64,000 nucleotides of DNA from Eledone cirrhosa (Eukaryota). Shown here in pieces: positions 5,782-52,148 of the stretch. The stretch spans positions 65,534,001 to 65,598,000 of the forward strand of contig OZ024746.1 of assembly GCA_964016885.1 (NCBI GenBank), given 5' to 3'. Both the position numbers and the translations under genes were made by a program. Every line of letters starts with the position of its first letter. The stretch's first letter is position 1. The notes beneath the pieces were generated by a model. It did not search any database. It saw nothing but the letters and a program-made list of their open reading frames with translations, and was not told the DNA's origin.

Positions 5782-6389
5782 CAGTCCCATTTCCTAAGTA
5801 AATCTCTGGATATTACTACGGTTTCGGTGCATTAAGGTAGATATCGTATATTTCCGGTGCACTTTGGGACACACCACAAACAGGCAAAGAGAAATTATGC
5901 TTTCAGGAAAATTTCTCAAATATAGTGTACGCAAAGGAGTAACCAAAAGGGACAATATACGAAGGAGAGAAATAGTAAAACAGAAGAGAATAAGGACTGT
6001 AATCCGACGTGCAGACAAAGAAGGACACTGAGGCGTAGACAAGGTAAGATGAGAGAACAGAGGGAAAGCGCCCGGGCGGTGTTCTGTCTATTATATGATA
6101 GTTTCAAAACCTGTATGACTAAGTCTTTAGAATATCAATTCAAAATAGGGAGTGCAGAAGACAAAGACAATAGGAAATACAACGGACGAAACAGTCCCAT
6201 TTGCACAGTCAACCTCTGAAAATCACTACGGTTTCAGACCGTTAAGGTCGATACTTCATTCCAGTGCAGATTGGGACACAACAAAATAGGCAGAGACAAG
6301 TTATTCCTTTATGAAAATTGCGCAGATATAGATTGCGCAAGGGCTTAGCCAAAGGAGAAATAATTACAAAGGAGAGAAATAGTAAAACA
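5782..6389 (-). repeat. Two diverged direct repeats (period ~410 bp), each with a degenerate hammerhead-like motif (pLTR/retrozyme-like)
   Basis: 5782-5982 and 6192-6389 align (cagtcccattt...actacggtttc...ttgggacaca...aaggagagaaatagtaaaaca). The minus strand reads gacc-ttaac-ggtc-tGAAAC-cgta-GTG in unit 2 and cGAAAC-cgta-GTA in unit 1, closed by gtccca...tgggac. Confidence 0.6.
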
Positions 6390-6981
6390 TAAAAAAACTA
6401 TATATCTCTGTGTGAGTGTCAGTATGTATGTGTGTATGCATGTGCGATTGTGTGAGTATGTGTATCAGTGTAGGTTACTACAATCATCAGGTGAAGCAGG
6501 TCAAGTAGGTCACTTTTACTTTAAAAGCGAATAAAAATATAGCAAAGTTAAGTATTTAATTTCTGCTGGTTTACAGAAATTTTACATAAAAAGATGGAAT
6601 ATCTTGCAGGATACAAATAAACATGCTATGAAATCTATCGCTTCATTAACTGTTGCACACACACACACACACACACACACACACATATATATATATATAT
6701 ATAACGGCGATGAATTAGTTTTGCACGTTTTTTTTATATGAAATCGTGTGTCGAAACAAATATTGTTATACTTGGGGAGGGTCATATTTGTGTAATATTG
6801 CCAGAATTAATAACAGAACACACTCACTGTTTAGTTGGTTTTCACTTTTCGCTTCTGTGTCTTTTATATCGGTTAATTTAATTTATTCGGTCCTCAATGT
6901 TGCCATTGACTGACCAACCAACGGTCAAAAATACAGATACAATATAGACATCAAACACATATATATAGTCTATCAAAGTTC

Positions 6982-7009
6982 TTTCGGTGCACATCTGCAA
7001 TATCCTCAG
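6982..7009 (-). ncRNA. Hammerhead ribozyme core (left PLE arm)
   Basis: Minus strand reads CTGAGGA-t-attgca-gatg-tgcacc-GAAA; mirror image of 12156-12183. Confidence 0.55.
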
Positions 7010-7271
7010 TGGTGCTATTGTCTCCTCCCGTTGCATTGTATGCCTATGCCATCTTTATTTAGTCTGTTTATATATTTATTCATTTGTTTATTTTGTTGTC
7101 TTCTTTGCGCATGCGTTTGCGTGTGTGCATAGTGTTTTGTTTTATGTGTGTTCGTATTTGGGTGACTGTGTATTGGTTAATGTATTCTATCTTTACTGGT
7201 GTGTGTTTATATGTGTTTGTTGTTATTGTGCTTGTGTATGTATTTATTTATTTATCTATTTATTTATTTAT

Positions 7272-8450
7272 TTATACTTCTCTTAGGTCAGTGTTGTTTG
7301 TTTGGGTGTTGTTGTTATTCCATTCATTTTTTCTGTTTAGCCTTGGCCTTCTAAGTTCTATTTCACTGGCCTCTCTGATTTGCCTATCTGCTGGGTCATT
7401 TCTATGTTTAGATATTATTCTAATTTCTATGTTGTCTATGTTACCGTCGTGTTGTTGTCTGGCATGTTCGTATAGTACTGAACCGTGTTTTCGTCCTTTT
7501 AGTTCCCCCCAGTGTTGGTCTATCCTTTCACATATGCTACGAGCTGTCTCGACTATGTATGTTGTTTTCATGTTTCTGTAAGTACCCTCTGTACATCTTA
7601 TGCTATAGACTACGTTTCTAGTTTTACAGTTTATCCGGGGGTTTACTTTACATATGATACATTTCCTATTAGTACAGTGGCTTTTCTTAAAAGGGTAGGT
7701 TATGCTGATCAGGGATTTTATGGTGGTTCCTGGCTTTTCTACCACCTTAATCTTTAAGTGCGTCTTTCTGAGAGCCTTTATACACTGGTTAGCTAATTTC
7801 TCTCCAGGGGTAGCTTCCACAAACATGACACTCTGGTATTTCTGGTTGTCGTACCATGAGGTGGCTTTCCTTATCTTATGTCTAGCCCTATCTAAGCTAT
7901 TTCATGATTTGCTCCTGTATAATGGGCAAATTCCGTTCATGTCCAGTTCTATGAGGGTCTTACACTTCTCCGTGGCTCCTTCGTATACTCTGATTATGTC
8001 TCTTTGGTTGTAGCCAGAGAACTGCATGCGGTTGATGAAGTGCTGGATGTGTCTTTCCATTTCTGTTGGGTCGCACATGCGGTACACGTTCTTCATCACT
8101 CGTACCAAGTCTGCGACCAGAATATTAAACTTAGCACTACTGGACATTGCTGAGTTTTTGAGTATCATGTATTTGGAGGCCATGGATTTAGCATAGTGTG
8201 AGTAGAGAATTTGGGTTCTCTCTCGTCTATAGTGTTAATCCAGAGTTCCGTGTCTAATACAGATAGTCTATTGTTAGGGTGTTTGGAAGGGTAGTCGATA
8301 GTTACAGTTATACTCTGGTGTATGGAATTAGCTATCTGCTGGATGCTTTCCATTGTGCTACGTTCTAAATCAAACTTGTTAGTGCTCTCTTGTGGGGATG
8401 TTCTTATTACTATATTGATATCGTCTACGTAACGAGAGTACATGATGAGG
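7272..8450 (-). pseudogene. Inverted PLE arm: RT C-terminus/thumb, Cys-rich linker and GIY-YIG endonuclease
   Basis: ORFs 8165-8617, 7902-8183 and 7272-7826 give MYSRYVDD; HCTNRKCIIC; CKTRNVVYSIRC...YIVETARSICERIDQH...EHARQQH...DPADRQIREASEI...PRLNRKNEW. Confidence 0.92.
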
Positions 8451-48952: not shown

Positions 48953-50382
48953 GATTTCTATTCTCCCCAAGATATCGAATCAAAATGAGAAATCATTTTA
49001 ATTATACAGTAGTGAGAGAAACGAAACCTATCAATTGTGTTTATGTTGTTAAGGAAATCCAGATGAAAGTAATCTTATCACTGTCAAGACAAAAGTTCAG
49101 TAAAGACGATAGCGATTGATAAAATAATTTATGAGTGTTACATCCGGAATCTCTGATCGGTTACAAATATTACCAAATAAATAAATGATAGGTCATTTTA
49201 TTATTTTCAGTAGGGTTGCAGTTAATTTTCAATTCCAAAATATTGTTTAAAAGATAATCTATATACTACTACAAATAACCATGCACACAGACACACACAC
49301 ACAACAGAAACACACACAAACACAGACACACATACACACACACACTCACACACACACACACTCACAAATTATATGTATATATATTTTTTCTCTCTCTCCT
49401 TTTTTCCTTCCCAATAATTTATAAAGGTTATTGACGCACTGGGATAGACATATTGTCTTTAATGCGTTGAAATATCAGAGACCACCAGCAAACAACTGAA
49501 GAGGGGACCTCTTCCTTATTTGTGCTTTCGTTTTATTTCTAAATACACTTTATCAAGTAACCACACAGCCCTTTGTCTCATCTCTCTCTCTCTCTCTCTC
49601 TCTCTCTCTCTCTCTCTCTCTCTCTCTCTCTCTCTCTCTCTCTCTCTCTCTATATATATATATATATATATATATATATATATATATATATATATATATG
49701 TGTGTGTGTGTCTGTGTCTGTGTGTGTGTGTGTGTGTGTGTGTGCGTGTGCGTGTGTGTGTGTGTGTGTGTGTGTGTGTGTGTAAGGAGATAAAGCAATA
49801 AATGAGTAAATCAGTAACCTGAATCTTCATTAATTGAAAGGTTCGTGTAACTACGAACTTTTGCCAAATTTATCTTTTCAAAATCTCTGTTAGAATAGAT
49901 AATAGTCATATATACACAACTTAGTGAAATCGTGGTTGGCGTAAATAGTTGTAATAATTAGGTGCAGTAAACGTATCTATATAGTATAATACAAATAGTT
50001 TAGAAACGACCGAAGTGAATTTGTGTTTAATATATCAGGAAAAGTTACTAGATACTCTAGTACATAAATAAAAATATATCAGGAAAGTGGGGAGAAATGA
50101 GATAAGAAACTTTACGTTGAGTGAAAAATGAGACTGCTGTTTATAGTCGAAGAGTAATCTGTTGGCAATTTGAAGAATTACCCTAGCCGATTATAATTTA
50201 TGGATACTGAATTGGAAAATTACAGTATTGCTTAGAAGTGAATATTATTGGCAAGATGTCTTATTACAATGCGGGTGCTGAACGACTTTAACATAATGTT
50301 CATAATTTAAAACTGTTTTTCAAGTAGTTTAGTTTTATTTGAAGGAAATTCAAATAATTATTAAGTTGGTGGAATAATAATA

Positions 50383-50680
50383 GAGGTTAACTTTGCCTTT
50401 TCTCCTTACGAGGTCGATAAAATAAAGTACCAGTAATGCACTGGGATAATTGTCGGCCTTGTGCCAAAAGTAAAAATAATTATTAAGTTGGTGGATTGGC
50501 AGTATCGGTAGAAGGTCAGACGCCATGTTTGCAGCAAAGAGTTACGGCCCTTTATGGTCTGAGTTCAAATCCCGCCGAGTTTAACTCTGCCTTTCATCCT
50601 TACGGGGTATATAAAATAAATTACCAGTAATACACTGGGATAATTGCTGGCCTTGTGCCAAAAGTAGAAACAATTATTTA
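50383..50680 (+). mobile_element. Tandem tRNA SINEs (partial 50383-50483 and full 50487-50680)
   Basis: Family consensus. The flank aataattattaagttggtgga recurs at ~50353 and ~50476. Confidence 0.85.
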
Positions 50681-51972
50681 GTTAAAAAGAAAGAAGTTTG
50701 GTATTTCTAAAGACATATACAAACAAGTACAACCAAGCAGATGTAACTACACAGTGTTGCAAGTAGGTAGTGGGATTAGAGGATTACATTAATTTGTATG
50801 GCGAGTTAAGTTCAGGTTTATTGGCATGACAGAGGTAGAGGAATTCTGATGTAATGTCTGAAACTGGGAAGAAGAGAAATTTTGGCGGAGACATTGAGTG
50901 AGGGCTTGGGTGGTGGATAGAGACAAATATATAAAGTAAATGATTAGAGATCTCATAGATAGTGGATGTGTAATTGAGAGAAAGAAAAATTTGACATATA
51001 AGAAAAATATTACTGAATTAATATACCAATATCTATTTAACTATTTACTTCTCTTGCTCCTTCTTCCTCCATCTCTCTCTCTCTCTCTCTCTCTCTCTCT
51101 CTCTCTCTACATATATATATATGTAGGAGGTGAGTTTTATTGTATGTTGATATGTTAATTTAAAACTGCACTATCCACAAGTGTTTTTTAGCCTTCATAT
51201 CATGTTCTCCTGTTTTATCTGATGAAAACACAAATATTATTGCATGATGATGTTTGTTTTTGAAATGCGCATAATAAAATACATGAAACTCCTTTAACCA
51301 TCTTTTGATCTTATATTATATATATATATATATATATACATGCATGTGTGTGTGTGTGTGTATGTATATGTATATTGGTTTCCACATGTTTGAGTTTTTT
51401 GACGGTCTGATAGATCAGGGAATTTCGGACTAGAAGCAGTATCAACATAACCACAACTGCCAGTCCATATATCGATCTACCATGATGAAAAGACCCACTA
51501 AAACGACCGTATATCAATGCACTAATTTACAACCAATCTACGACTTTTATTTTATTTTCATTGTCGAACACACACACACACCACTCACACAAACTCACAC
51601 ACACATACACACACACACACACACACACACATACACACATACACATATATATATATATGTAACGAATTAAAAGGGACAATGTGCTGCGTGGGTTACTAAT
51701 AATAAGTGTTTAAAAATGTAAGAGAAATACAAACATAAGTCAATTTCCCACCTCTTAAGTTGTCTGCTGTGGGTCTCGTTGTGCCAAAACACACACACGC
51801 GCACACACACACATATATATATAGTAATAATAATATATGTGAAGACTAAAACCCAAAGAGGGCTCGATAAGCATAAATATATATCAAATATATAAGAACC
51901 ATAGAGCAAATATTTATTAAAATAACAGATTAAAGTTTATATATATATATATATATATATATATATATATAT

Positions 51973-52148
51973 AACGAAGGAAATGTGGTAAGGAACCAGG
52001 TGGACCGTAACGCACCAAAGTACTCAATACTTAGGGTAGTAGAGTGGGTAATAGGAACGAGTAGGACCCCGACGGCTGAGCTCAAGCCGTTTCGACGGCT
52101 AATTCTGGACTGAGTCCAGAATTAGCCGTTGAAACTACTCGTTCCTAT
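51973..52148 (-). mobile_element. (TA)n-embedded fold-back element, copy D
   Basis: Same body as copies A and B. Fold-back centred on ctggact-g-agtccag, with an internally deleted arm. Confidence 0.85.

Follow-up and report, generated by a model that had tools for sequence, protein, structure and literature searches.

Fold-back insertions of Penelope-like elements and hammerhead-bearing repeats in (TA)n of Eledone cirrhosa

Organization of the fold-back elements

The window analyzed in this study is a stretch of 64,000 nt of the Eledone cirrhosa genome (contig OZ024746.1, positions 65,534,001 to 65,598,000). It contains a broken Neptune-type Penelope-like element (PLE), two non-coding, retrozyme-like hammerhead (HHR) repeat families with units of 420 nt and ~510 nt, and short hairpins matching the 5' leaders of two Hydra-type PLEs. 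The fold-backs do exist and represent PLE insertions in (TA)n, an insertion layout that has already been published. The features below are named by family: N1 (Neptune-type PLE), E2 and E3 (420-nt and ~510-nt repeats), F4 and E6 (leader hairpins) and T5 (a tandem pair).

5782..6392, minus: T5, tandem of two diverged units of ~410 nt; an older family with TA ends
6703..6760, minus: 58-nt tail of N1, on the left arm only; equals the ORF start in an intact copy
6761..8450, minus: inverted arm of N1, the 3' 1.7 kb (end of RT, GIY-YIG, pLTR)
8439..8570, plus: junction piece of N1, a 132-nt direct copy of 10605-10736 between the arms, with short microhomologies
8571..12397, plus: main arm of N1, 5'-truncated, with Asn-rich region, RT, CX4CxxC linker and GIY-YIG
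12156..12189, plus: HHR motif of N1, minimal type, with weak stem I and U17; second copy at 7009-6976 (minus)
14586..14722, minus: untailed inverted arm of E2, adjoining (TA)n 14532-14585
14722..15072, plus: 5'-truncated E2 unit of the 420-nt tandem family, with HHR 14758-14800 and tail 15017-15072, followed by (TA)n
30950..31107, minus: F4 copy 1, a leader/pLTR hairpin of the Hydra-type PLE H1
37781..37855, minus: untailed inverted arm of E3, from arm comparison
37852..38160, plus: main arm of E3, truncated within the HHR, tail 38079-38160; non-coding unit of ~510 nt
40460..40663, minus: F4 copy 2, a diverged variant, from arm and family comparison
47802..47861, minus: F4 copy 3, a single untailed arm, from arm and family comparison
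51123..51317, plus: E6, from the leader/pLTR of another Hydra-type PLE (H2); its minimal HHR (51219-51273) is intact
51974..52147, minus: F4 copy 4, with the 3' half of the H1 hammerhead and tail 51974-52050

An initial annotation had described three elements with the same inverted layout, and their arms are indeed present: 6761-8450/10717-12397 in N1 (1690 nt, 96.5% identity), 14587-14722/14876-15013 in E2 (91%) and 37781-37855/38004-38078 in E3 (97%). The four-copy fold-back family that it listed corresponds to related hairpin copies at 30950, 40460, 47802 and 51974. The 3' tail, said to be duplicated in inverted orientation, is found on one arm only, and the ends of the elements are therefore 6703 (left arm of the PLE), 15072 and 38160, and not just 12397, 15016 and 38078 as given before; the tail carries the true ends 56-82 nt further out.

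Coding PLEs and their leader hairpins

The main arm of N1 lacks ~420 nt of the ORF, which is further broken by frameshifts and stops, and ends untailed in (TA)n 12399-12438. An intact copy (L190) has a 1217-aa open frame with RT motifs and a YIG motif, the single ORF with RT and C-terminal GIY-YIG that characterizes EN+ PLEs. Atlas neighbours of the N1 protein carry RVT_1, HTH_animal and GIY-YIG at 0.97, its PDB matches are weak and to RTs alone (E 0.07-0.2), and a Pfam search of the N1 and H1 proteins gave no match. We also found the CX4CxxC linker, two Cys between the GIY/YIG positions and two His downstream (L190-L192), together with partial tandems of the pLTR, an inverted 5' copy and a tail. 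This motif set points to a Neptune-type PLE. As far as the available sections of PMC8557442 and PMC3846280 describe them, Neptune-clade PLEs share with N1 the C-terminal GIY-YIG, a CX2-5CxxC linker, two Cys and two His in the EN, an Asn-rich region, partial tandems, the inverted 5' copy, a tail at one end and the bias for microsatellites. The tail is longer here (41-62 nt versus 30-40 nt) and, unlike in the published elements, the HHR of N1 is weak family-wide; the assignment to Neptune rather than Nematis is a putative one, made by motifs.

The F4 sequence runs on into a 717-aa RT+EN frame (H1), while E6 runs on into a second RT+EN frame (H2) that is ~41% identical to H1. H1 shows the features given for the Hydra clade in the available part of PMC8557442 (RW[K/R], DKT, CxCX5C, no CCHH, CxxC and CxH, a pLTR HHR and (TA)n targets), with RWR replacing RWK; RW, DKT and CxCX5C were found in H2, which like H1 has a pLTR HHR and inserts in (TA)n. 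The HHR of H1 has a U3-A8 core variant, as described in PMC4209133, and is predicted to fold as a three-way junction. The units of ~3.5-3.9 kb exceed those of published Hydra elements (generally <3 kb), and the abundant leader-only hairpins ending at a TCAT motif do not appear in that part of the Hydra description (PMC8557442). The broken PLE of the window has no sequence in common with the short families, at odds with the earlier picture of one coding element and its non-autonomous families. The four-copy family, read there as a further member of the same system, instead represents the 5' leader/pLTR of another PLE, one of Hydra type. A link of short families to an autonomous PLE holds for F4 (H1) and E6 (H2), and none was seen for E2 or E3 in the loci examined.

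The 5' stops of unselected bystander arms cluster at the TCAT motif: 40/48 lie within -12..+6 in H1 (the others are seven at -13 and one at +8) and 5/6 at 0/+1 in H2. The motif, which may be an Inr, likely marks the transcription start. The F4 stop is spread over ~12 nt of a U-rich stretch with added A/T runs, a pattern that RT stalling could also give. The F4 and E6 hairpins would accordingly be copies that began at the RT start sites and ran off the 5' end of Hydra-type transcripts, like strong-stop DNA, an origin to which we give somewhat better than even odds and which would need no separate non-autonomous family. The alternative, closer to the initial annotation, is that F4 and E6 descended from Hydra pLTRs but form genuine short families, each with master loci of its own. 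The copies are young and numerous, and two variant sites borne by most short F4 copies were not seen in any of the 20 long H1 copies examined; yet variants of the long element also occur in short copies (L137, L143), no tandem or full-length short master was found among the copies examined, and both families stop at the same motif within the pLTR. We regard own masters as rather unlikely.

Hammerhead motifs and retrozyme-like repeats

None of the three HHRs named in the initial annotation is intact in the window. The N1 motif has only two uninterrupted stem I pairs and a U at position 17, also in family copies, the E2 motif (14758-14800) has U16.1 mutated to G (T in family copies), and the E3 motif (37857-37892) retains only the 3' half of an HHR that is complete in other family copies. 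The intact HHR of E6 at 51219 had been missed. Our HHR calls rest on the family copies, because a motif scan of the single window is near chance (8 matches versus 45 in 10 shuffles) and an Rfam scan of the window (E<=1) gave no hammerhead among the matches listed (150 of 155), a list of microsatellite-driven miRNA noise. Folding energy is not taken as evidence, since the MFE z-scores of eight candidates are unremarkable (0 to -1.45). The region 5782-6389, previously read as tandem HHR-like units, is a tandem pair (5782-5985/6192-6392, 76% identity), and neither these units nor 24 further copies show a CUGANGA core; T5 was rejected as an HHR after reading by eye, in type I/II/III order and with covariant cores, gave no fit.

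An HHR ~185-225 nt from the 3' end had been proposed as part of the shared layout. The cleavage site lies 211 (N1), 220 (E2) and 183 nt (E3) from the untailed end, in rough agreement, but 18, 40 and 50 nt from it in three other families; constant spacing is no rule, given this range of 18-220 nt. HHR cleavage was rejected as the source of insertion ends: no end coincides with a cleavage site.

E2 forms arrays, with 24 units in 10 kb and an intact core in 19/24, while E3 forms partial tandems of ~510 nt (two HHR units in L068), and no long E3 array was seen in the loci examined. Both families consist of non-coding tandem units with a type I HHR in each, and occur as dispersed monomers and arrays alongside PLEs, as described for non-LTR retrozymes in the available sections of PMC7229834 and bioRxiv 10.64898/2026.07.22.740005. 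E2 and E3 thus probably are retrozymes, as the initial annotation had suggested for its two short families, with predicted HHR self-cleavage. No partner PLE with pLTR homology was found in the loci examined. PLE protein matches near E2/E3 copies look like neighbouring insertions (the L196 and L007 regions, read base by base, are both (TA)n-separated), and upstream of 30 further E3 loci we found the preceding E3 unit alone. The mobiliser of animal retrozymes has so far been argued only indirectly; in the available parts of the same two sources (PMC7229834, bioRxiv 10.64898/2026.07.22.740005), the arguments are HHRs in common, co-occurrence and pLTR homology, and an insertion signature is not among them. 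The dispersed E2/E3 copies (units 420/~510 nt) do bear the PLE insertion signature: two start points, a one-sided tail, 5' inversion and a TA target.

Insertion ends, arm haplotypes and the route of insertion

N1, E2, E3, F4 and T5 are multi-copy, with 2983, 493, 3102, 585 and 1528 first-look candidates, respectively, of which 40 were scored each. Loci are the best 40 BLAST matches per query and N1 pairs were chosen from a protein search, so the frequencies below are not genome-wide. Ends that do not continue into a further unit are TA-adjacent in 48/52 cases for F4 and 53/58 for E6, compared with 7/117 and 9/117 for a control repeat in the same loci, which bears out the (TA)-rich flanks reported earlier. 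Each family has two fixed 3' end points, 58-148 nt apart, and TA loose ends occur at about the same two E2 positions in contigs of two other runs (X1: 1362; X4: 1362, 1428). Head-to-head TA-flanked pairs have one tailed and one untailed end in 76/77 cases over six families (N1 19/19, E2 3/3, E3 7/8, F4 22/22, E6 22/22, E7 3/3), a count that requires both anchors and TA on both sides and hence under-counts odd structures. Without two duplicated loci the figure is 74/75 (p=2e-21 against 0.5). The exception is an E3 pair with two tails (L070), and the window copy 54274-54476 is tail-to-tail; both count against the model. The untailed arm is the longer one in, e.g., L180, L183, L191-L193 and L198, the tailed arm in L181, L194 and L195.

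Sister arms share haplotypes. All nine young inverted N1 pairs have the same haplotype, versus 64/423 (15%) of non-sister pairs (8 sites, 7 synonymous), and 25/26 F4 pairs agree against 0.53 expected. E3 sister arms are discordant at 14/184 sites versus 3910/13241, while E6 offers 2 informative sites only. This concordance could also reflect one active source locus at a time, or conversion between arms.

The best explanation as a whole, with a probability of roughly 0.65 on sequence comparisons, is that (TA)n received insertions of PLEs, of pieces of their 5' leaders and of the two non-coding, hammerhead-bearing repeats, likely as two cDNAs per RNA. That PLE machinery made the insertions is almost certain, and it very probably moved the retrozymes as well; two primings on one template or locus are somewhat favoured. 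PLE RT/GIY-YIG proteins would nick both target strands in (TA)n, and a single RNA would template two cDNAs, primed at the outer and the inner start site, respectively. The 3' ends of these cDNAs may then be joined via microhomology or template switching. E2 and E3 would be mobilised in trans, with multimeric or circular RNA as the template, and HHR cleavage would set no insertion end. L1 twin priming likewise gives an inversion from two primers on opposite target strands, but its arms do not overlap, whereas the two arms described here are usually copies of one and the same stretch.

The two end points per family may correspond to the pair of sites at which RT was reported to start in vitro on the Anolis Poseidon element PAc; these bracket the tail, both strands were cut and extended, and a dimer was predicted (PMC11167929). 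Internal initiation near the ORF start and dispensable HHR cleavage are further likenesses; inverted pairs, arm haplotypes and leader run-off are analyzed here and not in the available part of that paper (PMC11167929). PMC8557442 calls the way in which PLEs build tandem and inverted structures an unsolved problem; a specific model, testable in the existing in vitro system, follows from the one-tail rule, the shared haplotypes of sister arms and the leader run-off hairpins. Tentatively, at somewhat under even odds, twin priming might be the PLE default: a dimer would start a cDNA at either of two fixed sites of one RNA, leader run-off would seed microsatellites with hundreds of strong-stop-like palindromes of ~200-420 nt, and retrozymes would share the route, in which case the one-sided tail would record directly in the genome that PLEs drive retrozyme mobility. 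In genomes of this kind, short (TA)n palindromes annotated as MITEs or unknown repeats may in many cases be PLE products.

A self-priming fold-back, in which a single cDNA (or antisense RNA) folds on itself and primes its own copy, with the tail left by endonuclease resolution, has been proposed in PMC3846280 and PMC8557442. It would explain the identical sister haplotypes and the palindromic apexes of F4 and E6, and the junction piece 8439-8570 does show copying from an antisense template. However, the untailed arm often exceeds the tailed one in length, and some tailed arms (the window E6 copy, L202, L224) stop within the tail and therefore cannot have been copied from the partner; the E6 inverted arm (51123-51144) consists of the last ~20 nt of the tail only and duplicates nothing in the insertion. 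One-tail pairs, shared sister haplotypes and either arm being longer favour two primings on one template over a simple fold-back, which we consider improbable. MITEs, microsatellite instability or assembly error could give short palindromes in TA, and a TA target-site duplication would be invisible in (TA)n. Such origins can practically be dismissed: we found no fixed symmetric terminal inverted repeats, but asymmetric ends, variable arm lengths, tandem units and arrays, HHRs and continuity with RT frames, and many loci, as well as contigs of other runs, share these ends. In sum, the earlier observation is partly confirmed and its interpretation partly supported, including PLE origin, (TA)n targeting and the exclusion of MITEs. 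Retention of the hairpins as a source of dsRNA or small RNAs appears very unlikely; transcripts of the window copies, if made, are predicted to form long hairpins (-65 to -250 kcal/mol), but such folding is a consequence of the insertion geometry.

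Coding and non-coding members of the fold-back system

The fold-back system of this window (G000:C6:65534001-65598000, in a (TA)n-rich assembly of 3.0 Gb) is real and is mostly known biology, with an added mechanistic signal that deserves a test. Its elements include:

6703-6760: tail of N1, a broken Neptune-type Penelope-like element (PLE); 58 extra bases on the left arm only, adjoining (TA)n
6761-8450 and 10717-12397: inverted arms of N1, 96.5% identical
14586-15072: E2, a retrozyme-like hammerhead (HHR) repeat whose copies form tandem arrays of 420-nt units
37781-38160: E3, a second such family, non-coding, with a unit of ~510 nt
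51123-51317: E6, with a family-backed intact HHR, overlooked in the initial annotation

The N1 protein has no Pfam match, and its neighbours in the Atlas carry RVT_1 and GIY-YIG. The right arm ends without the tail. In L190, an intact copy, the ORF begins with the tail sequence, the same arrangement as in PMC3846280 and PMC11167929. The N1 HHR motif is kept in 30 loci, yet its activity is doubtful because stem I is weak and U17 is present. The junctions of inversions (8439-8570 in the window, 2619-3278 in locus L182) hold captured segments from elsewhere in the element, suggesting template switching.

An E2 array contains 24 units in 10 kb, 19 of them with an intact core. The HHR is a minimal type I motif (stem I of 6 bp, palindromic stem III, triplet GUA), and the window copy has G at position U16.1. 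Dispersed copies have two (TA)n end points, corresponding to 15016 and 15072. The ‘half HHR’ initially assigned to E3 is indeed half in the window, but it represents a full type I HHR shortened by 5' truncation: other copies contain the full motif (stem I of 7 bp, CUGAUGA, GAAAC, GUC). In 30 further loci, the E3 unit is always preceded by the end of another E3 unit. E2 also forms long satellite-like arrays at G000:C28:109.96-110.06 Mb and 116.23 Mb. Each E2 and E3 unit has a GTAAGT resembling a splice donor upstream of the HHR; introns are known within PLE pLTRs.

T5 (5782-6392) is an older tandem family (~80%) likewise ending in (TA)n. Its units at 5782-6389 were initially taken as HHR-like, but neither the window copy nor 24 other copies contain an HHR core.

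Leader pieces of Hydra-type PLEs

The four-copy hairpin family F4 is the pLTR/leader of a Hydra-type PLE. Among 29 loci elsewhere, 24 are short hairpins, four are single short arms and one continues into a PLE with a 717-aa RT+EN frame, which shows the Hydra motifs as listed in section 11 of PMC8557442. This parent has a U3-A8 hammerhead, predicted to fold as a three-way junction, of which F4 contains the 3' half alone. Long copies of the parent are also common (1164 candidates). No HHR in the window other than that of E6 is both intact and supported by a family. Searching by pattern for E6 copies that continue beyond the tail gave 114 matches, 25 of which were used as loci; a second Hydra-type ORF follows E6 in four of the five fully read. 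An inverted part, scored by eye, is found in 27/29 E6 loci.

One tail per inverted pair

The 3' ends of each family fall at two points. Of the head-to-head pairs with TA at both flanks, 76/77 combine one end of each type (74/75 without the duplicated loci L134 and L135). The sole exception, L070, has tails on both arms. Family ends are TA-adjacent far more often than random positions (4-8%) or a control repeat (7/117, 9/117), namely:

20621-20836, 28676-29040, 30178-30392, 50383-50683, 62508-63103 and others: SINE-like family of ~200 nt

Earlier publications cover PLE inversion, the tail, the bias toward TA, HHRs and the link between retrozymes and PLEs, and a tail frequently confined to one end is described in PMC8557442 (Fig. 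2 legend) and PMC3846280. The measured contribution here is how strictly the one-tail rule holds over six families, two of them retrozymes. Such a tail signature on retrozymes was not found in the literature searched, including the available text of PMC7229834 and bioRxiv 10.64898/2026.07.22.740005. Such structures, the short leader hairpins treated below among them, may already be described in Arkhipova 2006, Evgen'ev and Arkhipova 2005 or the supplements of the papers cited here.

A further tailed, HHR-bearing, TA-ending family, E7 (54274-54476; 1232 candidates; tail of ~148 nt), has many copies ending near a TCACT motif. Its window copy is tail-to-tail, contrary to the one-tail rule.

Origin of the pairs and of the short arms

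In these pairs either arm may be the longer one, and the tailed arm sometimes breaks off within the tail, a pattern that simple fold-back cannot produce. Sister arms resemble each other: they have the same haplotype in 9/9 N1 pairs versus 64/423 non-sister pairs (loci L181-L199) and in 25/26 F4 pairs versus 0.53 expected, and E3 arms are discordant at 14/184 sites versus 3910/13241. Together with the two start sites and the extension of both strands shown in PMC11167929, these features point to two primings, which would occur either on a single RNA, with strand displacement, or on two RNAs from one locus. Arm-to-arm conversion, or a single source active at a time, would also give concordant sister arms. 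The twin-priming reading was not found in the PLE and retrozyme literature searched, including the accessible text of PMC11167929, PMC8557442, PMC3846280 and PMC2377424.

Arms of F4 and of E6 break off close to one shared TCAT motif, which lies within the pLTRs of their parents. This holds for 40/48 (F4) and 5/6 (E6) bystander arms in loci of other families, and 33/46 E6 arms lie at 0/+1 of TCAT in E6's own, query-biased loci. Since the pLTR is where PLEs have their promoters (PMC2377424, PMC3846280), the short arms are probably run-off copies of the 5' leader. The spread of F4 stops across a U-rich stretch counts against leader run-off, as do variants in most short F4 copies that are absent from the long copies fetched. 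Such run-off hairpins were not found in the literature searched, including the available text of PMC8557442, PMC4209133 and PMC13282606. The fixed HHR-to-3'-end spacing initially proposed does not hold; distances range from 18 to 220 nt, so the ends are not set by the ribozyme.

Other repeats were also observed. A GC-rich hairpin element (12515-12738, 12947-12996, 13609-13793) has no copies beyond the window among the fetched loci; an extension of ~40 nt, which ends in TA, is optional. Another family (31168-31344, 51824-51937, 59643-59675), TA-adjacent at its two ends, recurs with hairpin copies in many of the loci fetched (66 hits), and a 62-nt hairpin extended on one side lies between TA runs at 31923-32050, with relatives in L260, L085 and L333. 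A 581-nt repeat (13015-13595 versus 41349-41929, 94%) occurs elsewhere within (CATA)n/(TA)n runs. A broken LINE (33677-37393; RVT_1, E 3e-15; ORF upstream) has its 3' end repeated at 4245-4601, 20831-21022 and 44799-45109. Type I HHRs of eight or more additional families occur as bystanders (L017, L052, L058, L065, L088, L095, L133, L143 and others). Among them are a further U3-A8 core and, in L143, a 310-nt tandem array.
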